64,000 nucleotides of DNA, from positions 2,403-66,402 of the forward strand of contig JANMYS010000061.1 in NCBI GenBank assembly GCA_031382385.1, in the 5' to 3' direction. The position numbers and the translations under genes are program-made. Origin of the DNA: Gemmatimonadota bacterium (GTDB lineage Bacteria > Gemmatimonadota > Gemmatimonadetes > Gemmatimonadales > GWC2-71-9). The notes beneath the pieces are model-generated. The model saw nothing but the letters and a program-made list of their open reading frames with translations. It had not been told where the DNA came from and searched no databases. Of this stretch, positions 2,896-59,853 are shown in pieces (within the stretch, counting starts at the first letter, position 1; the number at the start of each line of letters is the position of its first letter).

Positions 2896-2930
2896 GGCGA
2901 TAGGCGATAGGCGATAGGCGATAGGCGGTA
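2896..2930. repeat. tandem heptamer array (GGCGATA)x4 plus GGCGGTA
   Basis: Read directly from the sequence. It starts 6 nt after the fadI stop. Confidence 0.9.
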
Positions 2931-2968
2931 GGGAGTAGGCGGGTAGGGGCGGAGCTCCAGCTCCGCCC
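2931..2968. repeat. GGGAGTAGGCGGGTAGGGG box plus hairpin GGGCGGAGC tcca GCTCCGCCC
   Basis: The reverse complement matches 10322-10350 (GGGGCGGAACTGGAGCTCCGCCCCTACCCG) with one mismatch over about 29 nt. Confidence 0.85.
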
Positions 2969-3019
2969 TTAAGAGATCCTTCGTCGCTGCGCTCCTCAGG
3001 ATGACAGCAGTCAGAAACT

Positions 3020-3046
3020 AACGGCCAACGGCTAACGGCCAATGGC
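3020..3046. repeat. heptamer array ACGGCCA ACGGCTA ACGGCCA ATGGCC
   Basis: Read directly. Confidence 0.9.
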
Positions 3047-3061
3047 CCTCAAAGGCTCCAC

Positions 3062-5203
3062 ATGTCCGCACTCACCGAATCCCGCCATGGCTCCGTTGCC
3101 GTGCTCACCCTCGATCTTCCGGGCGAGCCGGTCAACAAGCTCAACGCGGCGGTCAAGGCCGAACTGGAGTCGGCGTTTGCACGGCTCAGGACGGACACGA
3201 CCCTGTCGGCGGTAGTGCTGATCTCGGGCAAGGCGGACACCTTCATCGCCGGCGCCGATATCGAGGAGTTCACCAGGCTCGGCACGCGCGAGGCCTTCGA
3301 GCAGCTCTCGCGCGAGGGGCAGATCATGCTCCAGATGGTCGAGGATTTTCCCCGGCCCGTCATCGCGGCGATCCACGGCGCCTGTCTCGGCGGCGGACTC
3401 GAGGTGGCGCTGGCGTGCCATTACCGCATCTGCACCGATCATCCCAAGACCCAGCTCGGTCTCCCGGAGGTCATGCTTGGCTTGCTCCCAGGTGCGGGCG
3501 GCTGCGTGCGGCTGCCGCGGCTGATTGGCGTGTCCGCCGCATTGGCCATCATCCTGCCCGGCCGCAGCGAGACCGGACCCAAGGCGTTCAAGCTCGGGCT
3601 GGTCGATGAGCTGGTTCCGAAGAGCATCCTGCTGGAGACGGCATTGAAGGCCGCGGCGCGGCTCGCTGGTGCTGGCGTCCCCGCCCGAAAGAAGAAGGGC
3701 GCACTCGCTGGAGCGATCCTTGACCGGACCTGGCTCGGTCGCCGGATCGTCTACAGCAAGGCGCGGCGCGACACGGTCAAGAAGACCTTCGGCAACTACC
3801 CCGCCCCGCTCGCGGCCCTGGACGTGGTGCGGACCGGGCTCGAGCATGGCGCGGCGGCCGGCTTTGTCGCGGAGCATCGGCAGTTTGGCGCGCTGGCCGC
3901 CACCGAGGTCTCCCGCAAGCTGATCGGCATCTTCTTCGCAACCAACGCCCTCAAGAAGGACGACGGCCTTCCCCCCGGAGTCGCCGCCGCGCCGCGCACG
4001 GTCGAGCGCCTGGGTGTCATCGGATCGGGCTTCATGGGCGCGGGCATCGCGGGCACGGCGGTCAGCCTGGCCGGGGTCGGGGTCCGGCTGCGGGATACCG
4101 AGCTGCCGCGTGTGGGGAAGGGGCTCAAGTCCGCCACCGACATCCTCACCACGAGGCTCAAGCGGCGGCGGCTGTCCCGTTTCGAATATGAGCGGCTCAC
4201 CGCGCTGCTCACTGGCGGCACCGACTTCACCGGCTTCCACAACGCCGATCTCGTCATCGAGGCGGTGTTCGAGGATCTCGACGTGAAGCGTTCCGTGCTG
4301 GCAGAGACCGAGGCGGCGACGCCCGACCGGGCCATCTTCGCCACCAACACCTCCACGATCCCGATCGGCGACATCGCCGCCAATGCGCGCCGGCCGGAAC
4401 GGGTGCTGGGGATGCACTTCTTCTCGCCGGTTGACCGGATGCCGCTGCTGGAAGTCATTCCGACGACGAAAACCAGTGCCGAGTCGATCGCGACGGCGGT
4501 GCATTTCGGCCGCAAGATGGGGAAGACGGTCATCGTCGTGCGGGACCACCCGGGATTCTGGGTCAACCGCATTCTGACGCCGTACATGAACGAGGCCGGC
4601 TACCTCTTCAGCGAAGGCGTCCCGATGGAAGTGCTGGACCGGGTCATGACACGGTTCGGCTTTCCGGTGGGTCCGATCACGCTGCTGGATGAAGTCGGGC
4701 TGGACGTCGCGGCAAAGGCGGGGGGCGTGATGCACAAGGCCTTCGGCGAGCGGCTGACCCCGTCGACCATGCTTGGCAAGCTGCTGGCGGACAAGCGGCT
4801 CGGCCGAAAGAACGGCCGCGGCTTCTATCTCTATGCCAAGGGTCAGAAGGCGGGCCCGGATGAAACGGTCTACGATCTCCTGGGCATCAAGCCGAGCCGG
4901 CCCGCCGATCTCACGCTGACGGAGCAGCGCCTGGTCTACAGCATGTTGAATGAGGCGGCCATGGCCGCGGGCGAGGGCGTGGTCCGTTCCCCGCGCGACG
5001 GCGACATCGGGGCCATCTATGGTATCGGCTATCCGCCCTTCCGCGGCGGGCCGTTGCGCTACATCGATGACCTCGGCCCCGCCGCGGTGGTTGCCACGTT
5101 GCGGGCGCTCGAGCAGCAGGTCGGTCCTCGCTTCCAGCCCGCCGCCTCGCTGGTGCGGATGGCGGAGAGCGGGGCCACGTTCTACGGCGCGGTGCCGGGG
5201 TAG
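3062..5203 (+). CDS. fadJ: fatty-acid oxidation complex alpha subunit (enoyl-CoA hydratase / 3-hydroxyacyl-CoA dehydrogenase)
   Basis: 713 aa. It has an N-terminal crotonase fold (AAIHGACLGGGLEVALAC) and a central NAD-binding GVIGSGFMGAGIA with a 3-HCDH domain. Confidence 0.9.
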   Translation: MSALTESRHGSVAVLTLDLPGEPVNKLNAAVKAELESAFARLRTDTTLSAVVLISGKADTFIAGADIEEFTRLGTREAFEQLSREGQIMLQMVEDFPRPVIAAIHGACLGGGLEVALACHYRICTDHPKTQLGLPEVMLGLLPGAGGCVRLPRLIGVSAALAIILPGRSETGPKAFKLGLVDELVPKSILLETALKAAARLAGAGVPARKKKGALAGAILDRTWLGRRIVYSKARRDTVKKTFGNYPAPLAALDVVRTGLEHGAAAGFVAEHRQFGALAATEVSRKLIGIFFATNALKKDDGLPPGVAAAPRTVERLGVIGSGFMGAGIAGTAVSLAGVGVRLRDTELPRVGKGLKSATDILTTRLKRRRLSRFEYERLTALLTGGTDFTGFHNADLVIEAVFEDLDVKRSVLAETEAATPDRAIFATNTSTIPIGDIAANARRPERVLGMHFFSPVDRMPLLEVIPTTKTSAESIATAVHFGRKMGKTVIVVRDHPGFWVNRILTPYMNEAGYLFSEGVPMEVLDRVMTRFGFPVGPITLLDEVGLDVAAKAGGVMHKAFGERLTPSTMLGKLLADKRLGRKNGRGFYLYAKGQKAGPDETVYDLLGIKPSRPADLTLTEQRLVYSMLNEAAMAAGEGVVRSPRDGDIGAIYGIGYPPFRGGPLRYIDDLGPAAVVATLRALEQQVGPRFQPAASLVRMAESGATFYGAVPG

Positions 5204-5296
5204 GCGCAGACGTCCGCCTCCCCCGCCCTCCTCGAGCGGCTCACCGCCGGCCTGGGCGATCGCTACGTCATCGAGCGGGAGCTGGGGCGCGGGGGG

Positions 5297-8542: not shown

Positions 8543-9645
8543 CGCTTCATCAGGGTCAGCACCTGCTGCATGGCATCGATGGCGCTCAACGGGGCGAATC
8601 GGGCGCGCAGCGCCTGGCTCACCCGGAGCAGGGCGGGGGACAGCAGCAGCTCTTCCCGTCGGGTGCCGCTCGCCTTGAGATCGATGGCGGGGAAGATCCG
8701 CCGATCGGCCAGCTCCCGGCTCAGCGTGAGCTCGCTGTTGCCGGTCCCCTTGAACTCCTCGTAGATCACCTGGTCCATCTTCGAGCCGGTATCAATCAGC
8801 GCCGTGCCGATGATCGTGAGCGATCCGCCGCCCTTCGATTCATCGATCGTGCGGGCGCTGCCCAGAAAGCGCTTGGGCTTCTCGAGGGCGTTTGAATCGA
8901 GGCCACCGGTCATGGTGCGGCCGGTGCCGCGCTCCACCGTGTTGTACGCCCGGGCCAGCCGGGTGATGGAGTCGAGGATGAGGACGACATCCTCGCCCTG
9001 CTCCACCCGCCGCCGGGCCCGTTCCAGCGTCAGTTCCGCCACCGCCACATGCCGCTCCGCCGGGCAGTCGAAGCTTGAGGCGACCACTTCCCCGAACCCG
9101 CAGCTCTCCATGTCGGTCACTTCCTCGGGCCGCTCATCCACCAGCAGAATCAGGAGGAGTGACTTCGGGTAGTTGGTGGCGACCCCTTGGGCGACCGACT
9201 GCAGCACCATCGTCTTGCCGGCCTTGGCCGGGGCGACGATCAGCGCGCGCTGCCCTTTGCCGAAGGGGCAGAGCAGGTCGATGATCCGGTTGGTATAGTC
9301 GGCGTTTCCGAACCGTCTGAGCCCGCAGTCGAGCGTGAGGGCCTGCTCGGGGTGGATGGCACCGAGGCTGGCAAAGGTAGGGCGGCTGCGGGCTTCCTCG
9401 GCGGGGCGACCGTTGACCTCGGTGACTTTTTCGACTGGGGCGGACTTGCCCCGCCCCGGCGGGCGACCGGTTTCGCCAAACAGCTCGTCGCCGCTCCGCA
9501 GCCCGTACTGGCTGACCAGGCGCGGGGGGACGTAGTAGTCACCGTCTTCGGGGAGGTAACTGAACTGGCGGCGGCGCACAAAGCCCGCACCGCGGTCGGT
9601 GAGTTCCAGAATGCCGAGTGATGGAGATGTCATGAGGTGCGTCAA
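8506..9645 (-). CDS. rho: transcription termination factor Rho
   Basis: Walker A APAKAGKT, LLILLVDERPEEVTDM, and a RecA-type core with an OB-fold N-terminal region. Confidence 0.95.
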   Translation of the reverse strand: MTHLMTSPSLGILELTDRGAGFVRRRQFSYLPEDGDYYVPPRLVSQYGLRSGDELFGETGRPPGRGKSAPVEKVTEVNGRPAEEARSRPTFASLGAIHPEQALTLDCGLRRFGNADYTNRIIDLLCPFGKGQRALIVAPAKAGKTMVLQSVAQGVATNYPKSLLLILLVDERPEEVTDMESCGFGEVVASSFDCPAERHVAVAELTLERARRRVEQGEDVVLILDSITRLARAYNTVERGTGRTMTGGLDSNALEKPKRFLGSARTIDESKGGGSLTIIGTALIDTGSKMDQVIYEEFKGTGNSELTLSRELADRRIFPAIDLKASGTRREELLLSPALLRVSQALRARFAPLSAIDAMQQVLTLMKRYPSNEELGAVS

Positions 9646-9723
9646 TATAGCACAGGGCGGGCCGCCATTGGTCCGTTCGGGTTGTGAGAAGTATTCTATC
9701 TACGTGCAGGCCGTCATCCCGGC

Positions 9724-9826
9724 GTCAGGCGGACGGTCGGACGGTCAGACGGTCAGGCGGTCAGGCGGTCAGGCGGTCGGACGGTCACGCGGTCAGGCGG
9801 TCGGACGGTCAGGCGGTCAGGCGGTA
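9724..9826. repeat. about 13 tandem 8-nt units GGTCRGRC
   Basis: GTCAGGCG GACGGTCG GACGGTCA GACGGTCA GGCGGTCA and so on, with strict 8-nt period. Confidence 0.95.
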
Positions 9827-9842: not shown

Positions 9843-9895
9843 CGCCTCGCGCCTCGCGCCTCGCGCCTCGCGCCCGTTCCCCGTTCCCCGTTCCC
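9843..9895. repeat. (CGCCTCG)x4 followed by (CCGTTCC)x3, then CTCTCCTC before ATG 9903
   Basis: Read directly. Confidence 0.95.
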
Positions 9896-9902
9896 TCTCC
9901 TC

Positions 9903-10321: not shown

Positions 10322-10411
10322 GGGGCGGAACTGGAGCTCCGCCCCTACCCGATCGTCCAATCGCCTAATCGCCTAATCGCCCAATCGCCCAATCGCCCAT
10401 CGCCCATCGCC
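10322..10411. repeat. hairpin + TACCCG + (YAATCGCC)n / (CATCGCC)2 array
   Basis: It fills the whole DCC / aminotransferase convergent gap. The array ends on the aminotransferase stop codon. Confidence 0.9.
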
Positions 10412-11310: not shown

Positions 11311-11353
11311 GGGGGGACCGCTTGAGCACGAGAGGGGATCGGAAATCGGGTAC

Positions 11354-11467
11354 GGGGAACCGGGAACGGGGACCAGGAAACGAGAAGCAAGAGCGTCGCG
11401 ATCAGCGAAGGGTGACACGACTCCACTCCTATCGGCGCGGTGCCCGGTTCCCGGTTCCCCGTTCCCC
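11354..11467. repeat. inverted heptamer arrays GGGGAACCGGGAACGGGGACC ... CCCGGTTCCCGGTTCCCCGTTCCCC
   Basis: Arms at 11354-11373 and 11443-11467 with a spacer of about 70 nt. Confidence 0.9.
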
Positions 11468-14427: not shown

Positions 14428-14431
14428 GCTG

Positions 14432-14527
14432 ATGGCCGTTGGCCAGTCGCCGTTGGCAACTAGCATTCGACTCAACTGCCCAACCGCCCGGTCGGGCACG
14501 GAGGCCCGACCTACCCGCCCAATCGCC
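14432..14527. repeat. TGGCCGT-type array, hairpin GGTCGGGC acggag GCCCGACC, then TACCCGCCCAATCGCC
   Basis: Same module order as 49364-49527 read on the minus strand. Confidence 0.85.
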
Positions 14528-17406: not shown

Positions 17407-17464
17407 CGGCTGGGCGGCTAGGGGATGGCGGAAGGTACGGGGCGACGGGAGGAGGGGGAAGTGA

Positions 17465-17530
17465 GCTGTCAGCCGTCAGCATTCAGCCAACCGCCCGACC
17501 GCCTACTCCCTGCCTCCTGCTCACTCCTGC
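17465..17530. repeat. CAGCCGT-type array followed by CGCCTACTCCCTGCCTCCTGCTCACTCCTGC box
   Basis: Read directly. The 11-mer CGCCTACTCCC recurs at 2931-2941 (-) and 45396-45406 (-). Confidence 0.85.
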
Positions 17531-17829
17531 TTCCGCGTCCACCGCTCCGCATCCCGTCGTTCGACCTTGTCCATCATTCTGTCAAACGCCGCCTGCAGGT
17601 CGATTCCCTCCCGATTGGCCATGCAGATCAGGACAAAAAGGATATCGGCCATCTCCATGGCCATGTCCCCGTCGGCTTCTTCCTTCTTCTTGGTCTTCTG
17701 GCCGAAGCGGTGATTCACCTCCCGGGCCAGCTCGCCGACTTCCTCGGTGAGCCGGCAGAGATTGGTCAGCGGGTGGAAGTAGCCCTCCTCGAACTGGCTG
17801 ATCCACCGGTCGACGCGGGCCTGATGCTG
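17521..17829 (-). CDS. MazG-like nucleotide pyrophosphohydrolase (YpjD-type); 5' boundary undefined
   Basis: The track ORF 17521..17718 starts at GTG. The same frame upstream reads HQARVDRWISQFEEGYFHPLTNLCRLTEEVGELARE, which contains the EExxE metal motif and resembles B. subtilis YpjD. No ATG/GTG/TTG occurs between this and the upstream TAG. Confidence 0.7.
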   Translation of the reverse strand, partial: QHQARVDRWISQFEEGYFHPLTNLCRLTEEVGELAREVNHRFGQKTKKKEEADGDMAMEMADILFVLICMANREGIDLQAAFDRMMDKVERRDAERWTRKQE

Positions 17830-17859
17830 GGAGTGGGGATTGGGGGGTGGTGGGCGAAG

Positions 17860-17947
17860 GGGGAACGGGGAACGGGGAACGGGGAACCGGGAACCGGGAA
17901 CAGATGAATGATGTATGCTGACGGCTGACAGCTAACGGCTGACGGCC
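17860..17947. repeat. (GGGGAAC)x4 (CGGGAAC)x2 array plus ACGGCTG-type array
   Basis: Read directly. The second array overlaps the last codons and stop of the ABC transporter gene. Confidence 0.95.
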
Positions 17948-21041: not shown

Positions 21042-21048
21042 GGAGGCC

Positions 21049-21133
21049 TTTGGCCGTTGGCCGTTAGCCATTGGCGGTAGCGGTGAACGCGAGCATGCTG
21101 CAGCCGCATCGGGCCTTGAGCCAACGGCCAATG
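21049..21133. repeat. TTGGCCGTTGGCCGTTAGCCATTGGCGG and inverted GCCAACGGCCAA
   Basis: 12-nt inverted repeat about 57 nt apart, between the SDR start and the S58 peptidase stop. Confidence 0.85.
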
Positions 21134-21140
21134 TCCCCAC

Positions 21141-22394: not shown

Positions 22395-22545
22395 TATCAG
22401 CCGTCAGCCGTCAGCGGGGAGCAGTCAGCAGTCAGCATTCAGCGTTTAGCTTGCCGTCCGACCGTCCGACCGTCCGACCGTCCGACCGTCCGACCGCCTC
22501 GCGCCCAGCGCCACTTTTCACCTCCTACTCCCTGCTCCCTACTCC
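22395..22545. repeat. CAGCCGT/CAGCAGT array, (CCGTCCGA)x5 array, CCGCCTCGCGCCCAGCGCCAC box, CT-rich leader
   Basis: Read directly. It ends at ATG 22546. Confidence 0.95.
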
Positions 22546-42818: not shown

Positions 42819-45380
42819 ATGTCTGAACGCAGCGAACGTCTCGTGCTGCCCGTCCTGCCGTTGCGGGAAGTTGTGCTCTTTCCCGGAGTGACCGCCCCGA
42901 TCGGGGCCGGTCGTCCCGGAACCCTGCGTGCGATCGAAGCGGCGCTCAATACGCCCGACCGCCTGATCTTCGCCGTTTCGCAGCGGGAAAACGTCGAGCA
43001 GGTGACCGGCGAAACCCTCTACACGATCGGTACCATCGCCCGCATCGGCCAGATGCAGCGCGGGCTGGCCGGCATGCAGCTGCTGCTTCACGGCGAGCGG
43101 CGCGGCATCGCGATGCACATCGGTGAAAAGAACGGGTACATGGAGGCGATCATCCGCGAGGCCGAGGAACTGGCCCCGCTCAATAGCGAGGATCCCGCCT
43201 TCGTCGGCCTGTACAAGGAAGCCCGGGCCCGGGCCGGCGAGCTGGGCCAGAAGTCCGGCTTGCCCGAGGAGGTCGTGCAGCAGGTGCTCGCGGGCGTCGC
43301 CGATCCGGGCCGTTTCGCGGATCTGGTGGCCGGCTACCTCGACATCCTTCCGCCGCAGCGCCAGGCGCTGCTGGAGACGCTCTCGGTCGAGGAGCGGCTG
43401 CGCCGGGTTCTGGTCCACGTGCAGCGCCAGATCTCGGTGCTGGACGCACAAGAGGACATCAAGTCGCAGGTGCAGGAAGAGCTGGGCGAACGCCAGCGCG
43501 AGATGTTCCTGCGCGAGCAGCTCAAGCAGATCCGGCGGGAGTTGGGTGAGGATGACGAACGCGGAGATCTCGAGGAACTGCGCGAGAAGCTCGATGCCCT
43601 CGATCTCCCGGCCGAGGCCCGGAAGGAATCCGAACGCGAGTTCGGCCGGCTGGAGCGCATCAGCCGGGAGTCGATGGAGTCGCAGGTGATCCGCACCTAC
43701 CTCGACACCATCACGGAACTGCCGTGGAACCTGCGCAGCGAGGAGTCACTGGATCTCGTCAAGGCCAGCGCCATCCTCGATCAGGATCACTATGCCCTGG
43801 GCGACGTGAAGGACCGGGTGCTCGAGTTCCTGGCGGTGCGCCAGCTCAAGGAACAGGTGGCCAGGCAGGAGGAAGACGGTCAGGGGGTCGGACGGTCGGA
43901 TGGTCAGGTGGACCCGGAGCGGGTTGAAGCGACGAGCGTGGAGAACGCGCCCGATGCCCCGACCGTCCGACCGTCTGACCGCCCGACCGCCACAGAGGGC
44001 AACAGCGACGAAAAGGCCAGCAAGGGGCCGATCCTCCTCTTCGTCGGACCGCCGGGTGTCGGCAAGACCTCCGTGGCCAAGTCGATCGCCCGCGCGATGG
44101 GGCGGAAGTACGTCCGCATCTCGCTCGGCGGCGCGCGCGATGAAGCCGATGTCCGCGGCCACCGGCGCACCTACGTCGGCGCCATGCCCGGCCGCATCCT
44201 GCACGCGATGAAACAGGCCGGCACCAAGAACCCGGTCTTCCTCCTCGATGAGGTGGACAAGCTGGGCGTCTCCTTCCAGGGCGACCCGGCCAGCGCCCTG
44301 CTGGAAGTGCTCGACCCGGCCCAGAACGACAGCTTCGTCGATCATTACCTCGGTGTACCGTTCGACCTGAGCGAGGTGCTGTTCATCTGCACCGCGAATT
44401 TCATTCAGAATATCCCGGGTCCGCTGCTGGACCGGATGGAAGTCGTGGAGTTTGCCGGCTACACCGAGCGAGAGAAGCTGATGATCGCGCGGAAGTATCT
44501 CGTTCCGCGCCAGCAGGTGGAGCACGCCCTGAGCTCGGACCAGATCAACATCACAGACGAGGCCGTCGCCGAGGTCATCTCCAGGTACACCCGCGAGGCA
44601 GGAGTCCGGCAGCTCGAACGCGAGATCGGAAAGCTCTCCCGCAAGGTGGCGCGCAAGATCGCCGCGAAGGAGACGCCGCAGGTGGAAGTCACGGCGGAGA
44701 TGGTCGACGATCTGCTCGGCCGGCCCAAGGTGCATCCCGAACGCGCCGCCCGGGAAGACCAGATCGGGGTGGCGACGGGGATGTACTACACCCCGGTTGG
44801 CGGCGACATCATGTTCGTCGAGGCGTCCACGATGCGGGGCAAGGGCGAGCTGGTGCTGACCGGCCAGCTGGGCGACGTGATGAAGGAATCGGCGCGCGCC
44901 GCCTGGACCTACGCCCGGTCACATGCAGCGGGGCTCCACATCCGGGAAGAGACCTTTGCGGAGCGGGATGCCCACGTCCACGTCCCCGCCGGCGCCATCC
45001 CGAAGGATGGACCATCCGCGGGCGTCACGATGGCGACGGCAATCATCTCCGCCCTCTCCGGCCGTCCGGTCCGAAACGACATCGCGATGACCGGCGAGAT
45101 CACCCTGCGCGGCGAGGTCCTGCCGATCGGGGGGCTGAAGGAAAAGGTGCTTGGGGCGGTGCGCGCGGGCATCACCCGGATCGTGATCCCCAAGAAGAAC
45201 GAGCCCGATCTCGAGGATCTGCCGGAAGAAATCAGGAAGCTGATCGAGGTGTATCCGGCCGAGAATCTCGGCCAGGTACTCGCGCTTACGCTGCGCGGTG
45301 CCAGCTTCCGGGATGGCCGGCTGCTCTTCGGCGATCAGGTGCCGGGCGATGTGGCGCCGTTGCAGGCGTACCATCACTGA
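42819..45380 (+). CDS. lon: ATP-dependent Lon protease (LonA)
   Basis: LON N-domain, Walker A GPPGVGKTS, Walker B FLLDEVDK, and protease Ser-Lys dyad region PKDGPSAGVTM. It carries an extra ~50-aa insert before the AAA+ module. Confidence 0.95.
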   Translation: MSERSERLVLPVLPLREVVLFPGVTAPIGAGRPGTLRAIEAALNTPDRLIFAVSQRENVEQVTGETLYTIGTIARIGQMQRGLAGMQLLLHGERRGIAMHIGEKNGYMEAIIREAEELAPLNSEDPAFVGLYKEARARAGELGQKSGLPEEVVQQVLAGVADPGRFADLVAGYLDILPPQRQALLETLSVEERLRRVLVHVQRQISVLDAQEDIKSQVQEELGERQREMFLREQLKQIRRELGEDDERGDLEELREKLDALDLPAEARKESEREFGRLERISRESMESQVIRTYLDTITELPWNLRSEESLDLVKASAILDQDHYALGDVKDRVLEFLAVRQLKEQVARQEEDGQGVGRSDGQVDPERVEATSVENAPDAPTVRPSDRPTATEGNSDEKASKGPILLFVGPPGVGKTSVAKSIARAMGRKYVRISLGGARDEADVRGHRRTYVGAMPGRILHAMKQAGTKNPVFLLDEVDKLGVSFQGDPASALLEVLDPAQNDSFVDHYLGVPFDLSEVLFICTANFIQNIPGPLLDRMEVVEFAGYTEREKLMIARKYLVPRQQVEHALSSDQINITDEAVAEVISRYTREAGVRQLEREIGKLSRKVARKIAAKETPQVEVTAEMVDDLLGRPKVHPERAAREDQIGVATGMYYTPVGGDIMFVEASTMRGKGELVLTGQLGDVMKESARAAWTYARSHAAGLHIREETFAERDAHVHVPAGAIPKDGPSAGVTMATAIISALSGRPVRNDIAMTGEITLRGEVLPIGGLKEKVLGAVRAGITRIVIPKKNEPDLEDLPEEIRKLIEVYPAENLGQVLALTLRGASFRDGRLLFGDQVPGDVAPLQAYHH
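43878..43991. repeat. inverted 8-nt arrays inside lon CDS
   Basis: GGTCAGGGGGTCGGACGGTCGGATGGTCAGGTG (43878-43910) and CCGACCGTCCGACCGTCTGACCGCCCGACCGCC (43959-43991). Confidence 0.9.
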
Positions 45381-45430: not shown

Positions 45431-45469
45431 GCGGGGAGCAGCGGCTGTCGCTGCTCCCCGCGCATTTTT
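45431..45469. terminator. bidirectional intrinsic terminator (lon / cytochrome c convergent pair)
   Basis: 13-bp stem GCGGGGAGCAGCG / CGCTGCTCCCCGC with loop GCTGT. It is flanked by AAAAGTTAAA upstream and ATTTTTC downstream. Confidence 0.75.
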
Positions 45470-45510
45470 CGCCCTGCGCCCTGCGCCCTGCGCCCTGCGC
45501 CTCGCGCCCC
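45470..45510. repeat. (CGCCCTG)x4 CGCCTCG CGCCCC array
   Basis: Read directly, just after the lon terminator. Confidence 0.95.
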
Positions 45511-49333: not shown

Positions 49334-49363
49334 GGTAGTAGTATGGGATACGCAGGAGGGATG

Positions 49364-49527
49364 GGCAATAGGCGGCTGGGCGATTGGGCGATTGGGCGAT
49401 TGGGCGGTTGGGCGGTTGGGCGGGTAGGTCCGGCCTCAGTGCCGGACCGGCGACTAGACGATTAGAAGATTGGGCGGTCGGCCGTTGGCTGAACGCTAAC
49501 GGCCAACGGCCAACGGCTGACGGCTGA
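49364..49527. repeat. (GGCGATTG)x3 (GGCGGTTG)x2 GGCGGGTAGG, hairpin GGTCCGGC ctcagt GCCGGACC, then ACGGCCA/ACGGCTG array
   Basis: Read directly. Confidence 0.95.
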
Positions 49528-49531
49528 TTCC

Positions 49532-50638: not shown

Positions 50639-50777
50639 AAGCGCCCCCGTGCAGGAGTGGAGCCGGGAAAAAGCGGGCGCATAATAGCCGCAGCACGCAG
50701 GTTACGCCACCGTGACCTCGTCGCTGAGGTCAAACAGGGTCAGGGAATCTGCGCCTAAACAACTACGGCGTTGTGGT

Positions 50778-53539: not shown

Positions 53540-53595
53540 GGTTGCGAGCGGCTGGAGGGGGCCATCAGGACCGGGATTGATACTCGGAGGGGAAT

Positions 53596-54510
53596 CTAGC
53601 GCGGGTCACAGGCGGGGTGCGCCAGGAAGCGCTGCAACTCGAATGCGACGGTGTCCGGTACGGTCTGGTGTGGACGGTGCAGCGCCTGCAGCCGGACGAA
53701 CCGGCGGCAGGGCAGGGCCGCCGCAATCCGTTCCCCGATCCTGAAGGGAATCGTGGGGTCCTGTCGCCCCCAGATGAGCAGCACCGGCTGGTGAATCTCC
53801 GCAAAGCGACCGGCGAGGGCCCCGAAATCGAACTGCTCCAGCACCCGTCGCGCGGCGGTGGTGGCGCTGCTGTCCTGGAGGAGCTGGTAGCCCTCACCGC
53901 CGCGGGGCTCGCGCAGCCAGCCCGGGTCGTGCGGTGGCAGGACGTACCCCAGGGTGAACACGATCCAGTGGGTGGATGATTGTACCAGGCCGGTGCTGTC
54001 GGAGATGAGTGGGTTGAGGCCTTCGCCCGCCGGATCGAGGAGCACGACGGCGACAATCCGGTCGGGATGATCGAGCGCGAGGCCGGCGGCGAGCTGGCCA
54101 CCCATCGAATGGCCCACGACGATGACCGGGCCTCGCGTCTGGCGGGCCAGCAGATCGCCGAGCCAGCGCTGGTAGGCGGGGAAATCGTAGGTGGTGTCCG
54201 GCTTGTCGCTCAGGCCAAAACCGGGAAGGTCGACGGCCAGCACCCGGAAGTTCGGCGGCACGCGGTCGAGAAGGTACCGCCAGGTCAGCAGCGACTCGCC
54301 GTAGCCGTGGAGGAAGAGCAGTGTGGTGTCGCCCGCCCCCGCGCGGAGCGCACGCAGCCGGAGATCATCGACCCGGATCCACTCGGCGCGGTGCGCTGGC
54401 CGGTGCCGGCCTGGCTGTCCGAGCCCCAGCCAGAGCAGCGCCAGGGCGACGAGGCCGATGAGCATGCGCCGGCGCATCCAGAAGATGCGGGCCCGGTGGG
54501 TCTCACGCAC
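53596..54510 (-). CDS. alpha/beta hydrolase
   Basis: LLFLHGYGES and the nucleophile elbow GHSMGG. Confidence 0.8.
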   Translation of the reverse strand: MRETHRARIFWMRRRMLIGLVALALLWLGLGQPGRHRPAHRAEWIRVDDLRLRALRAGAGDTTLLFLHGYGESLLTWRYLLDRVPPNFRVLAVDLPGFGLSDKPDTTYDFPAYQRWLGDLLARQTRGPVIVVGHSMGGQLAAGLALDHPDRIVAVVLLDPAGEGLNPLISDSTGLVQSSTHWIVFTLGYVLPPHDPGWLREPRGGEGYQLLQDSSATTAARRVLEQFDFGALAGRFAEIHQPVLLIWGRQDPTIPFRIGERIAAALPCRRFVRLQALHRPHQTVPDTVAFELQRFLAHPACDPR

Positions 54511-55399
54511 CGCAGCGGATCACGTGGATCACTCCGGAGGTGGTCGGGAGTGGCGCCTCGCTGGTCAGCACCAGGCGTGTGCCATCAAGCCAGTCGACCC
54601 CTTCGCCCTGGGGCTCGAGTCCGGCCAGAGTGCAGCGCGCAGTCGGTGCTCCCAGCCGACCGGCGGGGAGCACAGGGAGGAGATAGAGCTCGGTGTAGGT
54701 GCGGACGGCCACGCGGGCCCCATCGGGGGAGAGGGCGGCATCCGTCACCCACCGACCGGCGGACTGGTCCGGGACGATGGGAAGCAGCTGCACCCGGGTC
54801 GCGGTCGCAGTGCCGCGCGTGTCCCAGGCCACAGCGGGCACCCGGAAGAGGATGATGCCACCGGTTCGGCCCTTGGTCACCAGGCTCAGGCTGCCGTCCC
54901 GGTCGACCCACATCGCCTCGGTATCGTGCGGCCCATCGGGATAGCGTAGCAGCAGAGTGTCGAGATCAGTGGGAGTGGCGTCCGCTCCACCCCGGAACCG
55001 GTCGAGCCGGGTGGGCTCGCGCACCCGGTAGATGGTCACGACCTGTCGCTGCTGGAGGTTGTCGCCGATATCGCCCAGGTAGATACAGGAGCCGACGGGA
55101 CAGGCGCCGATGGCGATGGCTTCCCAGTCCAGGTTGCTCACTCCCGGGACGAGCCAGCGACCGATCGGCCGACCAGAGGAATCGGTGGCGAAGATGACCG
55201 GGTCGTTGCCCGAGTCGTTGATGGTGAAGAGGATGCGCGGAATCGCGTGGCTGCGCGCGACGCCCGAGCTCTCGCGCAGGTCAGGGTCCTGCAGGATTCC
55301 CGTCCGGGTCGATTCCACCGGGCGGGCGGGCAGTGTCTGGGCGGTGGCGGAGCAGGCGGAGAGCAGGGCGGCGCAACCGGCCAGGAACATTCGGCGCAT
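54503..55399 (-). CDS. hypothetical lipoprotein (beta-propeller-like)
   Basis: Lipobox LLSAC. Repeated beta-strand-rich blocks (ESSGVA, DWEAIA, TEAMWVD, TDAALSPDG). No firm family. Confidence 0.55.
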   Translation of the reverse strand: MRRMFLAGCAALLSACSATAQTLPARPVESTRTGILQDPDLRESSGVARSHAIPRILFTINDSGNDPVIFATDSSGRPIGRWLVPGVSNLDWEAIAIGACPVGSCIYLGDIGDNLQQRQVVTIYRVREPTRLDRFRGGADATPTDLDTLLLRYPDGPHDTEAMWVDRDGSLSLVTKGRTGGIILFRVPAVAWDTRGTATATRVQLLPIVPDQSAGRWVTDAALSPDGARVAVRTYTELYLLPVLPAGRLGAPTARCTLAGLEPQGEGVDWLDGTRLVLTSEAPLPTTSGVIHVIRCGA

Positions 55400-55454
55400 A
55401 CCGAATGGTAGTGCGTCGGTGGCCTCCGGTCAGGCGGCTACCCGGCGCGGCGGT

Positions 55455-56699
55455 TCAGCGCCGGACGGCAGCAAGTCGCGGTACGACCGCCAGCGCTGGC
55501 GGGACGCTCGAGGGCTGCGCCGCAACCGGGAACGGCTTGGTGATCGTCTTCGCAAAGATGCGCGCATCGTAGGCCGATCGCGGATTCCACAGCACCCAGC
55601 CATGGATGCCGAGGTCGGCGGCGGCCCGCATCTGATCGCGCACATGCTCCGGGGTGTACCGCGGCCTGCCGAGGGTGAAGGCCTGCAGGTACGGCCGGAT
55701 CTCCGCCGTGCTGCCGGCGACCAGGCGCGAGCGACGCTGACCATCGGCGAGTGCGCCGCGGACGACGCGGTACGGTTCGCTGTTGGGGTGCGAGGCGCCG
55801 TACATCGCCTGGTAGTAATGGCTGGGATAGACCATCGGCAGGACGACATCCGCCGTGGTGATCAGATCCTCCCACACCTGGCCGATGCCGAGATCGACGG
55901 TGACGTTGGTCGTCATGCCGAAGACATCGATGGTGAAGGGCACGCCGAGCGGCTTGATCCGGTCGCGCAGGAGCTTGAGGTTGCGCGCCACGCCGCTGCG
56001 GACGCTCTCGCCGGCCCGCCGCGCGGGGAAGATCGCCTGCGCCATCCGGCTGCGCGGTTCATCGGGGAATCGGACGTAGTCGAACTGCACTTCGCTGAAT
56101 CCGGTATGCACCGCTTCGGCGGCGAGCTGACCGGCGTAGACCCAGACCGAGTCGTTGAATGCATCAACCCAGGCGAAGTTGAGCCGGTCGTGCCACAGTC
56201 CGCCTCCGAGCTGATGAACTGCCCAGTCGGCCTTGTGGCTGGCCAGCAGCGGATCCTTGGCGACCACGATGCGGGCGATGGCGTGAATGCCGTGTTGATG
56301 CAGCACTCGAAGCCGCTCGGCGGCATCGCGTGCCCGGAGCTGCCCGTTGGCGCCGATGGCGATAGCGGTGGGGACGGCGGATCGATAGGTGAGGTAGCCG
56401 GTGTCATCCTTGACGTCGATGACGAAGCTGTTGATCTCGGTGGTGTCGGCGAGCCGGACGAGGTCCCAGAATCGGCTGCCGCCAAACGCCCAGGCGTTGA
56501 CGTAGATCGCCCGGACCGGTTCGGGTGCGGGGCGGAGCGGGGGAGCCGGCCAGGTAAGTGCATCGGCCAGGACCGCGCCCAGGCCGAGCAGCCGATCTAC
56601 CGGGCGGACTGGGCGCAACTCATCTCCCCAGTCCTTCAGGGACTGGGCGCCCAGTGGGGCGGCGGTGAGGTGCAACGCGAGAAGGATTGCGCGACGCAT
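55455..56699 (-). CDS. putative glycoside hydrolase (TIM-barrel, DUF4015/GHL-like)
   Basis: Signal peptide. IRAIYVNAWAFGG...INSFVIDVKDDTGYL and FDYVRFP blocks resemble that family, from memory. Confidence 0.55.
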   Translation of the reverse strand: MRRAILLALHLTAAPLGAQSLKDWGDELRPVRPVDRLLGLGAVLADALTWPAPPLRPAPEPVRAIYVNAWAFGGSRFWDLVRLADTTEINSFVIDVKDDTGYLTYRSAVPTAIAIGANGQLRARDAAERLRVLHQHGIHAIARIVVAKDPLLASHKADWAVHQLGGGLWHDRLNFAWVDAFNDSVWVYAGQLAAEAVHTGFSEVQFDYVRFPDEPRSRMAQAIFPARRAGESVRSGVARNLKLLRDRIKPLGVPFTIDVFGMTTNVTVDLGIGQVWEDLITTADVVLPMVYPSHYYQAMYGASHPNSEPYRVVRGALADGQRRSRLVAGSTAEIRPYLQAFTLGRPRYTPEHVRDQMRAAADLGIHGWVLWNPRSAYDARIFAKTITKPFPVAAQPSSVPPALAVVPRLAAVRR

Positions 56700-56733
56700 G
56701 GGCGGACCCGGCGTAAGTGCCTGTTTCGAATCA

Positions 56734-56764
56734 CTCAGGGGCCGGTCATCGACCGGCCCCTGAG
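56734..56764 (-). terminator. hairpin downstream of ompA-family gene
   Basis: 14-nt perfect inverted repeat CTCAGGGGCCGGTC atc GACCGGCCCCTGAG. The U-tract is weak. Confidence 0.45.
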
Positions 56765-56796
56765 TCAGAAGGCAATTGCCGTGCGCGCCACGGGGG

Positions 56797-58188
56797 CTAT
56801 GGTCGGTGCTTCACCTTGATCTCGGTCCGGCGGTTGATGGTCCGGGCAACTTCTGTGGTGTCCGCCACAAGCAGCGGTTGGGCGCCCCTTCCGATGGAGG
56901 TGATCCGGCTCACACTGATACCCTGGCTGACCAGGTAGTCCCTGACCGCGTCGGACCGGCGCTGGGACAGTTTGAGGTTGTCTCCGGGTACGAGCCGGTC
57001 GTGGGCAAAGCCGGTCACTTCGGCGATCGTGGTGGAGTCGGTCAGCATCACGGTCGCGACGGAGTCGAGGATCGTCGTCGCCTCGCTGGACATGCTGGAT
57101 CCGCGCAGTTGCCAGGAGCTGCCGGGCACCACCCAGCTCTGTTCGGCGGGAAGGGTGTCCGCCGGGAGCGGCTCCGGCACGGTGGGACACCCCGTCTGGT
57201 CGACGGCGGTATCGCGCCGGCTCTCCGGGCACTGATCGAGACCGTCGAGGACGCCGTCGGCATCGGTGTCGCTGGGACAGCCGAGGGCATCCACGGTGGC
57301 CCCGGCCGGGGTCAGCGGGCAGCGATCGAGGCCCTCGAAGACTCCGTCGGAATCGCTGTCCGCCGGGCAGCCCGCACCGTCCACCAGCGCGCCGGCGGGC
57401 GTCCCCGGGCAGCGGTCGAGGCCATCGAGCAGTCCGTCGCCATCGGTATCATGGCTGCAGCCGGCGGCATCGACCGCGGCCCCCTCGACCGTGTTGGGGC
57501 ACCGGTCGAGGCCATCGGGCACGCCATCGGCGTCCCGGTCCGTGGGGCAGCCGCGGGCGTCGACCAGGGCGCCCAGGCGGGTATCGGGGCAGGCATCGGA
57601 GCGATCGTAGATGCCGTCGCCATCGCGGTCGGTAAGTGGCGTGCTGCCCACCATCAGGCTCACGCCACCCTGCAGGATGAAATTGGTGAACTTGAGGGTG
57701 GTCAGACTGCGCTGTAGCGTCCCCTCGTAGCGCATGAAGAGGGTCGGCTTGATGGCAATGCGCACACCCGCTCCGCCCTGCAGCACATCGGCGGAGCCGC
57801 AGGGGCCGGCGCCCGGCAGCGAGACGGACGGACAGGTGCCGTAGCTCAGGTGAGCATATCCGCCCTTGAGGATCACGAAGGTGCTGCGACCGACCGCGAT
57901 ATTGCCCAGCGCCCAGAGGCCGAGGGTGTTGGTGCTGACCGCTTTCTTGAGGGAGGTATTCGTCTTCGGCTTGGCGAGGGTGCCTTCGGCCTCCACCGAG
58001 AAGGGGCCGTAGATCCAGTACCCCAGGCGGAGGGCGCCACCGAAGGCGGGGGAGAGGTCGGTCTTGCTGTCGTAGGTGTGATACCCGCCGGCCCCGCTCA
58101 GTTCGAGCTTGTAGAGCCGCTGCGCGGCCAGGGAGGTGCTGCCGAGGGTCGTCAGGGTGAGGCAGGGGAGGAGCAGGCGGCGCAACAT
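56797..58188 (-). CDS. OmpA-family outer-membrane protein with thrombospondin type-3 (Ca-binding) repeats
   Basis: N-terminal beta-barrel-like region, six repeats of D.DGDG..D..D.CP, and a C-terminal OmpA domain (RRSDAVRDYL, NRRTEI). Confidence 0.85.
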   Translation of the reverse strand: MLRRLLLPCLTLTTLGSTSLAAQRLYKLELSGAGGYHTYDSKTDLSPAFGGALRLGYWIYGPFSVEAEGTLAKPKTNTSLKKAVSTNTLGLWALGNIAVGRSTFVILKGGYAHLSYGTCPSVSLPGAGPCGSADVLQGGAGVRIAIKPTLFMRYEGTLQRSLTTLKFTNFILQGGVSLMVGSTPLTDRDGDGIYDRSDACPDTRLGALVDARGCPTDRDADGVPDGLDRCPNTVEGAAVDAAGCSHDTDGDGLLDGLDRCPGTPAGALVDGAGCPADSDSDGVFEGLDRCPLTPAGATVDALGCPSDTDADGVLDGLDQCPESRRDTAVDQTGCPTVPEPLPADTLPAEQSWVVPGSSWQLRGSSMSSEATTILDSVATVMLTDSTTIAEVTGFAHDRLVPGDNLKLSQRRSDAVRDYLVSQGISVSRITSIGRGAQPLLVADTTEVARTINRRTEIKVKHRP

Positions 58189-58367
58189 GGCGACTCGGGC
58201 AGCAGGAGGAAGAAGGAAGGTGGATTCTGCCCCCCGGTCACGGAGGCCGCAAGGGGCGCGCAGGGAAGGCGGCGGACTACAGGGCGCTGGCGGGAGCAGT
58301 TAGCTTGGGATCAGTGGCTCGTTTTCCCTTGTCTCAGGCTGTTCCTTTTCCCTGCCGATACTCCATC

Positions 58368-58598
58368 ATGCATTTCACGATCACCTACTGCGTCGTCTGA
58401 AACTACGAACCACGGGCGGCCGGTCTGGCCGCCGAGATCAAACGGGCGTATCCCGCCGCGGAGGTGCGCCTGGTGCAATCCTCCGGCGGGGCCTTCGAGG
58501 TCACCATGAATGAGGATGTCGTCTTTTCCAAGAAGACCCTCGGCCGGCATGCCCAGCCCGGGGAGATCATGGGGCTGATTCAGGGGAGGCGCGCGTGA
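58368..58598 (+). CDS. SelW/Rdx-family selenoprotein candidate (in-frame TGA at 58398-58400 read as Sec)
   Basis: My translation is MHFTITYCVV-U-NYEPRAAGLAAEIKRAYPAAEVRLVQSSGGAFEVTMNEDVVFSKKTLGRHAQPGEIMGLIQGRRA. It has a CxxU redox motif in the canonical position of the Rdx fold. A hairpin lies downstream of the TGA. Confidence 0.7.
58414..58434 (+). promoter_or_regulatory. bacterial SECIS-like stem-loop
   Basis: GGCGGCC (58415-58421) pairs with GGCCGCC (58427-58433) in a 7 bp all-GC stem. The apical loop is GGUCU, and it begins 21 nt after the UGA. Confidence 0.55.
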
Positions 58599-58607
58599 AG
58601 TCGATTG

Positions 58608-58640
58608 CCGGTTCCCTGTTCCCGGTTCTCCATTCCCTGC
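58608..58640. repeat. degenerate CCGGTTCC-type array
   Basis: GCCGGTTCCCTGTTCCCGGTTCTCCATTCCCTGC, between the selenoprotein candidate and pfkA. Confidence 0.8.
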
Positions 58641-58650
58641 GGGCTGTCGC

Positions 58651-59730
58651 ATGCGCATAGCGATCTCCACCGGTGGCGGGGACGCGCCGGGACTCAACGC
58701 CGTGATCCGCGCCATCGTCCTCTCCGCGCACACCCGCGGGTGGCAGACCTACGGTATTCGACGGGGATACGGAGGATTGCTGGGGAACGATGGAATCCAG
58801 AGCCTCACGCCCCAGTCGGTCCGCGGCATCACCCACCTCGGCGGGACGATCCTCGGCACCACCAATCGCGGCAACCCGTTCCGCTGGGCGTCGAAGGATG
58901 CGTCTGGCCGGGAGGTGGAGGTCGACCGGTCGGATGATCTGATCGCGGCGTTCAATGCGAGCGGGTTCGACGCGATGATTCCCATCGGCGGGGATGGCAG
59001 CCTCAAGATCGCCTACGACCTCGGACTCAAGGGGTTGCCGGTCGTGGGAGTTCCCAAGACCATCGACAACGACGTCTGCGGCACGCTGTCCACGTTCGGG
59101 TTCGATACGGCCGTCAGCACCGCCACCGAGGCGATCGACAAGCTGCACTCCACCACCGAGAGCCATGAGCGTGTCATGGTGGTCGAACTGATGGGTCGCG
59201 ACGCGGGGTGGATCGCGCTGCACAGCGGGATCTCCGCCAGCGCCGATGTGATTCTGCTGCCGGAGATTCCCTTCGATATCGCGAAGGTGTGCGAAAAGGT
59301 CATGGAGCGGGAGCGCGATGGCCGGCATTTCAGTGTGGTCGTCGTGGCCGAGGGAGCCAAGCCGATCGGCGGAGAGGCCAGCATGGTCGAGCGCCGCTCG
59401 ACCGGCACCGTGGACCGGCTCGGCGGGATCGCGTCGCTGGTCGCGAAGACCATCACCGAGCGGACCGGCAAGGAAACCCGAAGCCTCGTGCTCGGTCACC
59501 TGCAGCGCGGTGGATCGCCCACGACTTTCGACCGACTGCTGGCGCTGCGCTTCGGTGCCGCCGCGGTCCGCGCGGTCGCGGATCATGCGTTCGGCGTGAT
59601 GGTGGGATTCGCACCGCCCGAGATCATCCGGGTGCCGCTGGAGCAGGTCATCGGACGCACCAAGCATGTGCCGCTCAATTGCGATACCATCCTGACGGCG
59701 CGGGGGCTGGGAATCAGTCTGGGGGACTAG
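58651..59730 (+). CDS. pfkA: 6-phosphofructokinase
   Basis: GGGDAPGLNAVIR, IGGDGS, PKTIDNDV and MGRDAG. Confidence 0.9.
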   Translation: MRIAISTGGGDAPGLNAVIRAIVLSAHTRGWQTYGIRRGYGGLLGNDGIQSLTPQSVRGITHLGGTILGTTNRGNPFRWASKDASGREVEVDRSDDLIAAFNASGFDAMIPIGGDGSLKIAYDLGLKGLPVVGVPKTIDNDVCGTLSTFGFDTAVSTATEAIDKLHSTTESHERVMVVELMGRDAGWIALHSGISASADVILLPEIPFDIAKVCEKVMERERDGRHFSVVVVAEGAKPIGGEASMVERRSTGTVDRLGGIASLVAKTITERTGKETRSLVLGHLQRGGSPTTFDRLLALRFGAAAVRAVADHAFGVMVGFAPPEIIRVPLEQVIGRTKHVPLNCDTILTARGLGISLGD

Positions 59731-59734
59731 GAGG

Positions 59735-59853
59735 GCCGTCAGCCGTCAGCTGTCAGCCATCAGCCATCAGCCATCAGCCATCAGCCGTCAGCCGTTGGCT
59801 TGTCGGGTACCGCCTCGCGCCTAGCGCCACCCTCCTCACTCCCACCTCTCCTC
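59735..59853. repeat. about 9 units CAGCCGT/CAGCTGT/CAGCCAT, then CCGCCTCGCGCCTAGCGCCAC box and CT-rich leader
   Basis: Read directly. It ends at ATG 59854. Confidence 0.95.

Follow-up and report, generated by a model that had tools for sequence, protein, structure and literature searches.

Intergenic arrays of tandem heptamers, the short tandemly repeated repetitive (STRR) sequences, have been known since 1990. To our knowledge, intergenic heptamer arrays still have no accepted function. In many bacterial genomes heptamer arrays are the long simple repeats found most often, as a 2007 study showed (Mrazek et al., as cited in PMC4692102 and PMC4679880). The same two papers summarize STRRs and the 5–11 nt long simple-sequence repeats (LSSRs) as head-to-tail heptamers, mostly intergenic, with several families per genome at many loci, typical of large, high-GC or environmental genomes and proposed to originate by slippage. 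The GGGAATC and GGGGA(C/T)T repeats of Xanthomonas and Nostoc, with no identified function in the study of Rehm et al. (2015), place their G-rich strand as the coding strand within ~50 nt after stop codons, sometimes overlapping them, and as the non-coding strand just upstream of open reading frames (ORFs) (PMC4692102). They include inverted copies, differ greatly in length and sequence at the same gap from one close relative to another and are not linked to gene function (PMC4692102). In marine Beggiatoaceae, MacGregor (2015) described TAACTGA arrays in forward orientation that immediately precede start codons, the leaders having no Shine-Dalgarno (SD) sequence; the single AT-rich unit is present in 2–6 copies, and an S1/Csp-like factor was proposed to act on it (PMC4679880). 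The subject of the present analysis is the set of period-7/8 tandem arrays in the intergenic gaps of a 64-kb stretch of Gemmatimonadales DNA, analysed at its full length and called the window.

The arrays are best explained as slippage-grown simple-sequence repeats of the heptamer LSSR/STRR class whose persistence and orientation follow a strand-composition rule, a tentative reading that falls somewhat short of an even chance. The window has ~68% GC and encodes a phosphofructokinase (PFK, 58651–59730) with 98%, 97% and 92% identity to three proteins from Gemmatimonadota/Gemmatimonadales metagenome-assembled genomes (MAGs) and 60–85% identity to ~30 more; these identities assign it to a Gemmatimonadales chromosome. 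The related locus L001 is syntenic with window positions 49532–64000 at 89–93% DNA identity, and L003 is ~80% identical. Genes were called with a codon-usage model trained on Gemmatimonadales loci, and 39 ORFs were checked against Pfam, with ~12 called genes unscanned. Coding sequence makes up ~92% of the window, and the 35 gaps of at least 25 nt sum to 5.4 kb (5416 bp). The GC skew of the window is not monotonic, and Rfam 15 at gathering score gives no match anywhere in it.

Arrays were located with Tandem Repeats Finder (TRF) at period 7 or 8 and with a strict periodicity mask, and 20 simulated Markov-1 windows served as the control. The mask marks 826 bp of period-7/8 tandem DNA, compared with 22 bp on average and at most 65 bp in the simulations. 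Intergenic DNA holds 732 bp of it (13.5% of 5416 bp) and coding DNA 94 bp (0.16% of 58.6 kb). TRF reports 22 non-overlapping arrays of 3 to 11.5 copies, 18 of them in gaps; the positions include 2895, 3020, 9734, 9843, 9873, 10348, 11347, 11438, 17856, 17917, 21045, 22397, 22454, 22524, 43875, 43959, 45470, 49371, 49495, 58611 and 59735. There is a TRF array at essentially every position where the original prediction, made from the sequence alone, had claimed one. The E arrays at 43878 and 43959 had been counted among the gap modules and are in fact inside the Lon gene. The D arrays at 22498 and 59812 are present but have just two units each, and the supposed F array at 14519 is a single unit. 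The claim that at least 14 gaps carry these modules agrees with strict arrays in 12 of the 35 gaps plus two short or degenerate cases (14428–14526 and 17407–17520). Of the gaps described as largely filled, six are masked over 42–65% of their length and the other six over 5–31%. Arrays are patchily distributed: none of the nine gaps in 22800–43800 (21 kb; TPR genes and the hut block) has one, compared with 12 of 26 elsewhere, and the hut block had correctly been singled out as free of them. The window has 25 arrays per 100 kb, its relatives 5, and Sorangium and ~0.9 Mb of unrelated bacteria 3–4. Such arrays occur widely but sparsely, and the window stands at the extreme.

The units fall into about six families in which heptamers are mixed with octamers. 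A and B are CAGCCGT and TGGCCGT, C is CCCGTTC-like, D is CGCCTCG or CGCCCTG, E is an octamer family, F is GGCGATA and its relatives, and a CT-rich box often accompanies them. Among 16 heptamer units, 17 pairs lie within one mismatch of each other in any rotation or strand, compared with 4.5 expected, a number reached in 1 of 2000 simulations. Six octamer units form 4 such pairs compared with 0.28 expected, which none of 2000 simulations reached. The units are far more alike than random units of equal composition, and the small shared vocabulary originally described is real. The A/B pattern YRGCCGTYRGCCGT, a YRGCCGT dimer with at most one mismatch, has 15 matches, all in or overlapping intergenic gaps, against 0.83 expected, and the CT box CCTACTCCCT at the same tolerance has 7 matches in the window against 2.1. 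Strings of 19–25 nt are common to different gaps, as is a 21-nt string from a hairpin. The units are 7–8 nt long and abut directly; CRISPR repeats are 24–48 nt long with unique spacers, and the earlier statement that this is not a CRISPR array stands.

Comparison with relatives shows rapid change at the arrays. The window and L001 share ~93% DNA identity over 14.5 kb, and all three breaks in their alignment fall on arrays or hairpins: nine compared with two A units, a 58-nt G-rich arm found only in L001, and a duplicated hairpin. The gap after PFK has nine A units in the window, two in L001, about ten degenerate ones in L003, and F followed by A units in L002. Over ~30 genomes this PFK/prolyl oligopeptidase gap holds A arrays, F plus A arrays, one of four unrelated inverted pairs (for example (GAAGTGA)5...(TCTCACT)9 in L019), an unrelated hairpin, or nothing. 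The gap before PFK has a C array alone in the window, an added complementary G-rich arm in L001 and L003, and nothing in L002. Copy number and unit sequence of orthologous gaps thus both differ between close relatives, in two gaps for L001, L002 and L003 and in the post-PFK gap for ~30 genomes. Variant units lie next to each other within arrays, as do the four neighbouring CAGCCAT units at 59754–59781, and F units (GGCGATA, GGCGGTA, GGGAGTA) grade into the hairpin head GGCGGGTAGG. In L001 the orthologue of the hairpin at 62507–62540 is present twice, and its 3' arm is an array of three 12-mers; judged from its sequence, an array is here seen at its birth, formed in place out of a hairpin arm. 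Slipped-strand growth had been listed as an alternative in the original prediction. It is taken here as the origin and, with frequent seeding on GC hairpins, is largely shown at the sequence level by the adjacent variant units and by the breaks between the 93%-identical genomes. Short-read assemblies break at arrays: a Logan contig (run SRR20217211) is 100% identical to window positions 56701–59744 and stops 10 nt into the A array, and an exact-protein look-up of PFK returns one 3-kb contig, identical to the window. Arrays are therefore under-counted in MAGs, and copy numbers in any one assembly could be wrong.

One array pair lies inside a gene. The Lon gene (42819–45380) has 54 extra residues (346–399; nucleotides 43854–44016) between the N-terminal domain and the AAA+ module when compared with solved structures. 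This insertion is an inverted pair of octamer arrays that stays in frame and folds as a long hairpin (z −4.3). The linker ranges from ~8 to 55 residues in 60 homologues, some of which have peptide repeats such as ADRRADGQ ×2. Insertion of a mobile element was considered for the pair and is unsupported, the linker being hypervariable in all homologues; judged from these sequences, growth in place within a tolerant linker explains the pair and an insertion event is not needed.

The second component of the explanation is the relation between array strand and gene boundary. Across the clade set of 33 skewed arrays, 26 obey and 7 violate a rule defined by the nearest boundary (p = 0.0013), and array orientation is not random with respect to genes. 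The sense strand is C-rich in 11 of the 13 skewed arrays nearest a start codon and G-rich in 15 of the 20 nearest a stop codon. Several of the violations trace to doubtful start calls. A cruder test, which took in both neighbours up to 120 nt away, gave no significant result. All 12 skewed inverted pairs in the clade begin with the G-rich arm. Since such a pair reads alike on both strands, the order does not depend on gene direction. The G-rich arm is first in 6 of 8 skewed inverted pairs of unrelated bacteria. These pairs include those of four unrelated metagenome contigs (L134, L138, L142 and L150), which have inverted heptamer pairs directly after rho, G-rich arm first, for example (GGTGAAA)n...(TTTCACG)n.

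The strand bias extends to leaders that have no array. Positions −30 to −1 in the window are 0.41–0.45 C and 0.23–0.26 G, and where no array is nearby the C>G skew is +0.16 in the window, +0.12 over 336 Gemmatimonadales leaders and +0.02 in Sorangium. SD-like motifs are found in 24–30% of the leaders of the window and the Gemmatimonadales loci L001–L030, compared with 47% in Sorangium; a published survey table has the value 22 for Gemmatimonadetes in what appears to be its percent-SD column (PMC10783764). Many leaders of the window and L001–L030 contain CCTCC-like strings, which are the anti-SD sequence itself. The genes of the same set are C-rich in their first 10–30 nt and G-rich in their last 30 nt on the sense strand. 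In most minimum-free-energy RNA structures computed for 14 orthologous gaps downstream of PFK, the final 15–25 nt before the AUG stay unpaired, also when a stem of −57 or −67 kcal/mol takes up the remainder of the gap. Gap-spanning stems in L012 and L019 have z scores of −6.8 and −9.7. A conserved hairpin in this gap was considered and rejected: two of the 14 orthologues fold far beyond shuffled sequences and two are marginal, so that the structure is lineage-specific. From these sequences we infer that arrays are one way to meet a leader constraint that exists without them.

The modules also follow a fixed order within gaps. An A/B array lies 5' of the C-rich modules on the same strand in all seven gaps that hold both, as the original prediction had described. 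The array-bearing segments, the hairpins among them and the strand on which each is read are as follows.

2895..2941, − strand: F array, (GGCGATA)×6.7 on the + strand and C-rich TATCGCC on the − strand, beginning 4 nt past the thiolase stop codon (TRF).
2944..2971, no strand: GC hairpin with a GTAGG head, GGGTAGGGGCGGAGC-TCCA-GCTCCGCCC; an exact 21-nt string is common to it and, in reverse complement, the hairpin at 10322.
3020..3047, − strand: B array, (TGGCCGT/TAGCCGT)×4, 14 nt before the start codon of a fadB-like gene.
9724..9825, − strand: E array, (GGTCAGGC)×11.5 on the + strand, in the divergent rho/DCC1 gap upstream of the −10-like boxes of rho.
9843..9902, + strand: D array (CGCCTCG)×4.6, then C array (CCCGTTC)×3.3, then CT box CTCTCCTC, ending at the DCC1 ATG.
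10322..10411, + strand: GC hairpin with a TACCCG tail, then F array (CCAATCGC)×8.2, together filling a convergent gap as far as the − strand gene's stop codon.
11347..11466, − strand: inverted C pair, (CGGGAAC)×3.7 and (CGGTTCC)×4.1; the first array is the C-rich leader of an aminotransferase gene and the second encodes the C-terminal tail of a sulfotransferase.
14432..14526, + strand: degenerate B array, GC hairpin at 14490–14511, then TACCCGCCCAATCGCCTAC, in a convergent gap.
17463..17530, + strand: A array of 3 units, then CAACCGCC/CGACCGCC, then a CT box beginning CCTACTCCCTGCC, antisense to both flanking − strand genes.
17829..17946, − strand: A array ×4.3, AT-rich island, C array (TTCCCCG)×6.6, then a CT box before MazG.
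21045..21075, + strand: B array (GGCCGTT)×4.4 between a peptidase S58 stop codon and an SDR start codon, antisense to both genes.
22397..22545, + strand: A array ×6.7, E array (CCGTCCGA)×5.4, D ×2, then CT box (CCTACTC)×3.1, ending at an ATG.
43875..43989, + strand: inverted E pair, in frame inside the Lon gene, the 54-residue linker insertion.
45431..45509, + strand: canonical bidirectional hairpin plus T-run terminator, then D array (CGCCCTG)×5.7.
49371..49525, − strand: A/B array of ~6 units, degenerate F, hairpin at 49427–49448 with the GGCGGGTAGG head, then F array (CAATCGCC)×6.6 leading to the start of a TrmB-like gene.
58611..58639, + strand: C array (GTTCCCT/CCGGTTC)×4.1, 11 nt before the PFK ATG.
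59735..59853, + strand: A array ×8.7 beginning 4 nt past the PFK stop codon, D ×2 (CCGCCTCGCGCCTAGCGCC), then a CT box that ends at the prolyl oligopeptidase ATG.
62507..62540, no strand: hairpin GTAGGGGCCGCAT-GT-ATGCGGCCCCTAC, which includes a TAG stop codon.

Among co-directional gaps, three have the composite in sense orientation (17719–17931, 49334–49531 and 59731–59853) and three in antisense (2891–3061, 17407–17520 and 21044–21140), which by the criterion of the original prediction speaks against an insulator oriented to the genes. A/B arrays read CAGCCGT going away from the nearest gene boundary, start or stop, in all eight arrays of the window and also in L014 and L002. The single polarity first noticed is an order within the gap, with neutral or G-rich modules first and C-rich modules last, and not an orientation to transcription.

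Two ORFs extend into arrays. The last dozen or so codons of the sulfotransferase come from the C array (11432–11466), and the last codons of an ABC transporter with its TAG stop lie inside the A array (17932–17946). A small MazG-like gene (17521 to ~17800, − strand) lies between inverted A-array segments at 17463–17483 (+) and 17917–17946 (−), which have the exact 19-mer AGCTGTCAGCCGTCAGCAT in common. A 66-codon ORF (22546–22746) directly follows a CT box and ends 2 nt before an amidohydrolase ORF (22749–24416) that is read in a different frame; the short ORF may be an independent small gene or reflect a frameshift. The box GAGATCCTTCGTCGCTGCGCTCCTCAGGATGAC at 2970–3010 resembles the hairpins GAGCGAGGGATCTCC...GGAGATCCCTCGGTCGC found after PFK in L009, L011 and L013 (~11100–11170), and by its sequence looks like a separate dispersed repeat family. 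Longer repeats are also present. Tandem repeats of 21 and 12 nt at 40225–40426 lie in a 532-nt gap that overlaps an ORF without a Pfam match (39899–40441) and may be a repeat protein or a non-coding repeat, and a 90-nt tandem repeat (2.6 copies, 73% match) at 57216–57447 lies within an OmpA-like gene (56797–58188).

A mechanism that combines slippage with the strand rule would run as follows. The part that is largely shown is that arrays lengthen and shorten through slipped-strand replication, in many cases starting from the arms or the GTAGG head of gene-end GC hairpins, and that they change far more quickly than the genes on either side. A clade-wide strand-composition rule at gene boundaries would set which arrays persist and in which orientation. 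The 30–100 nt before a start codon would be kept C-rich and G-poor on the sense strand, giving an SD-poor leader unable to fold, and the sense strand next to a stop codon would tend to be G-rich. The C, D, E and F arrays and the CT box would act as a G-depleted leader or intercistronic spacer. G-rich arrays upstream would often complement the C-rich ones to form long hairpins with the G-rich arm 5', which makes these hairpins candidates for terminators, RNase III sites or insulators. The almost strand-neutral CAGCCGT/TGGCCGT arrays would fill the other end of the gap, so that the one polarity would be a G/neutral-to-C order that is the same read from either flanking gene. Function would then lie mainly in composition and pairing rather than in the exact unit, and exposed C-rich arrays may also load Rho.

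Several points weigh against this explanation. Its functional half is what we infer from sequence. Start codons come from a home-made model, which makes the leader statistics approximate. The boundary rule within the window alone is 9 obeying and 4 violating, which is not significant. Unlinked loci and other genera share the unit families, with A/B present in both L014 and L002, F in both L017 and L002, and E in L082. The 1.07-Mb contig L014 has (CTGACGG)×7 and (GCTAACG)×12, L002 has (AGGCGAT) plus (CAGCCGT), L017 has (CGCCTAAT)×6.5 and L082 has (CTGACCGC)×5. Such recurrence of units across genera and across loci (the shared strings of 19–25 nt) is not predicted by purely local slippage. The leader argument does not account for the invariable 5' position of the G-rich arm, which extends to convergent gaps and to the pair inside Lon, where no leader takes part.

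A role as Rho-loading sites, the insulator or silencer idea of the original prediction, in which C-rich RNA such as (CCGUUCC)n or (CAAUCGCC)n recruits Rho and stops read-through or antisense transcription at gene boundaries, is an unlikely explanation of the arrays that nevertheless has composition on its side. Among 78-nt windows centred on intergenic DNA, 5.2% reach a C/G or G/C ratio of 3 or more, compared with 0.15% of those centred on coding DNA, a ~35-fold enrichment, and array gaps reach 40–46 C and 8–14 G per 78 nt (C/G 3–5). The C-rich strand is thus Rho utilization (rut)-like in composition, as first proposed. The gaps of the window have a single canonical hairpin plus T-run terminator (45431–45461, with a D array next to it), and scans of three array-rich gap regions for sigma-70 promoter and intrinsic-terminator consensus sequences found nothing above shuffled sequences. 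Fifteen GC hairpins without a T-run lie at gene ends, six of them with a GTAGG head; in two (5196–5225 and 62507–62540) the TAG of this head is the stop codon of the upstream gene. Among the genes of the window is one for a Rho homologue, in which Pfam recognises Rho_RNA_bind and ATPase domains. Three convergent gaps are ordered stop codon, hairpin or A/B array, C-rich array and then the opposing gene, and the antisense strand is C-rich in 15 of the 20 stop-adjacent arrays, which would suit silencing of antisense transcripts. The G-first order of the inverted pairs (12/12) is as expected if exposed C-rich RNA is dangerous and needs masking.

Position argues the other way. The original prediction placed the C-rich strand on the sense strand just past stop codons, but the sense strand there is mostly G-rich (15/20), and strongly C-rich arrays lie mainly before the next start codon (11/13). 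Termination at arrays that end at the start of the next gene would silence that gene. Most arrays of rut-like composition are just before the next start or are paired with a G-rich arm. The A/B arrays, the commonest module, are nearly skew-neutral, the co-directional composites are divided evenly between sense and antisense, and a period of 7–8 nt has no known relation to Rho binding geometry. Convergent gaps are uninformative because any skewed array there is sense past the stop codon of one gene. Autoregulation of rho through its 92-nt E array was considered and rejected: the array is upstream of the −10-like boxes and is absent in L082, the closest relative, whose Rho is 83% identical, so that the array is not a conserved autoregulatory leader. 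The −10-like boxes TATATT and TAGAAT lie ~20–60 nt from the rho ATG (9640–9700, − strand), and a similar GATATATT precedes the L082 rho gene (3020–3076); this suggests a short leader. A metagenome scan with Rho returned a single close relative and otherwise generic Rho proteins at ~50% identity. Rho loading on exposed C-rich arrays, especially in convergent gaps, is plausible on sequence grounds.

A more elaborate functional proposal is a clade-wide cis-acting grammar in place of tolerated products of slippage. In Gemmatimonadales, with their small share of SD-led genes, G-depleted heptamer or octamer arrays would serve as the platform for translation initiation and as the means by which Rho senses untranslated RNA, the obligatory G-first arm as a mask that determines when the leader becomes exposed, and the CAGCCGT arrays as sites bound by a dedicated factor. 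It is considered doubtful as a whole; if true, it would supply a function for the 35-year-old STRR problem.

Copying of a mosaic element between gaps is improbable. [quoted passage not shown] The same module order in seven gaps in either orientation to the genes, the 21-nt hairpin string and 19–25 nt array strings common to different gaps, the inverted 19-nt A-array segments that flank MazG and the in-frame inverted pair inside Lon are all consistent with such copying. The earlier statement that these are not classic REP/BIME elements needs a qualification: the arrays are direct repeats, but six of 15 gap hairpins have a REP/SMAG-like GTAGG head. The composites have neither terminal inverted repeats nor target-site duplications. 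An alignment of seven composites has 45% mean column identity, three invariant columns, almost no conserved non-array sequence and no conserved ends, and the inverted pairs have no conserved body, which bears out the earlier exclusion of a MITE. No transposase or RAYT protein was found among the 39 Pfam-scanned ORFs, with ~12 called genes unscanned. Growth in place suffices for the hypervariable Lon linker, the L001 hairpin arm shows an array arising in place, and orthologous gaps hold unrelated units.

That the arrays are binding sites of a protein with sequence specificity for DNA or RNA, whether a nucleoid protein, a regulator or an S1/Csp-like factor, is similarly improbable. Unit families that are far more alike than chance and recur across genera, the fixed A/B orientation in gaps (8/8 in the window, also L014 and L002), and arrays right before start codons in SD-poor leaders, as in Beggiatoaceae (PMC4679880), are features that binding sites would have. 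The copy number changes from 2 to 9 between 93%-identical genomes, however, and the same gap has quite different units in different genomes. The flanking genes have no common functional theme, and no candidate binding protein was identified.

G-quadruplex (G4) or i-motif repeats acting through non-B DNA or RNA structure, with candidate units such as (GGGGAAC)4 and (GGGCGATT)4, are very improbable as a general basis. Of the 13 G4 motifs of the window, gap arrays (C, octamer F, the G' box and D at 45470) account for eight, one more is in the C array embedded in coding sequence at 11443, and the placement rule agrees with that of the Xanthomonas and Nostoc heptamers (PMC4692102). A canonical G4 is impossible in A/B, E, D (CGCCTCG) and F (GGCGATA), which lack a G3 tract and make up more than half of the array DNA. 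An assembly artefact is hardly credible: short-read contigs do break at arrays (L081 ends 10 nt into the array at 59735 and L001 begins beside one), but the independent Logan assembly is 100% identical up to the array, and the same families are found at orthologous and other gaps in many independent MAGs, including contigs longer than 1 Mb (L014, 1.07 Mb).

The window can be compared with several known systems. Its arrays have tandem 7–8 nt units beyond chance, a non-coding bias, dispersed families and copy-number variation, the features that define the LSSR/STRR class, and the window is a dense multi-family case of this known class of intergenic heptamer arrays and not a new kind of element. 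The head-to-tail, intergenic and dispersed families resemble the STRRs of heterocystous cyanobacteria and LSSRs. They differ in unit sequence, with no STRR1–3, TAACTGA or GGGAATC tandem dimer in the window, and in the Gemmatimonadota host, the admixture of octamers, the fixed-order chaining and the GC hairpins. The placement of the G-rich strand (26 of 33 skewed arrays), the inverted copies and the variability between relatives are shared with the Xanthomonas and Nostoc repeats. G3 tracts, however, are found only in C, in part of D and in octamer F, and not in A/B, E or heptamer F, and 6 of 22 arrays here are in divergent gaps, where the repeats of Xanthomonas are under-represented (PMC4692102). 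Heptamer arrays immediately upstream of start codons in SD-poor leaders recall the TAACTGA arrays, whereas the window has many GC-rich units that occur also at gene 3' ends, in inverted pairs and in both orientations. The hairpins are like those of REP, BIME and SMAG elements in having GTAGG at one end (2944, 5196, 10322, 14490, 49427 and 62507), in lying at gene ends, and in forming a mosaic with other short modules in either orientation. They differ from REP/BIME in that the bulk of the sequence is direct tandem repeats and the hairpin stems are dissimilar, with two similar pairs and no high-copy family. The C-rich arrays resemble rut sites as C-rich, G-poor stretches of 60–90 nt outside translated regions, but most sit right in front of a start codon, many have a G-rich partner arm, and rut sites are not tandem heptamers.

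The window adds the Gemmatimonadota as a phylum with unusually dense arrays, 25 per 100 kb compared with 3–5 in the other sampled sequences. Two sharp regularities, inverted pairs that always begin with their G-rich arm and a neutral array that always lies 5' of the C-rich ones, together with the link of the arrays to SD-poor, G-depleted leaders, make a descriptive oddity testable in translation initiation, Rho loading and RNA processing. The fixed-order chaining of six families with GTAGG hairpins is more elaborate than the arrangements of the Xanthomonas and Nostoc repeats or of the TAACTGA arrays.

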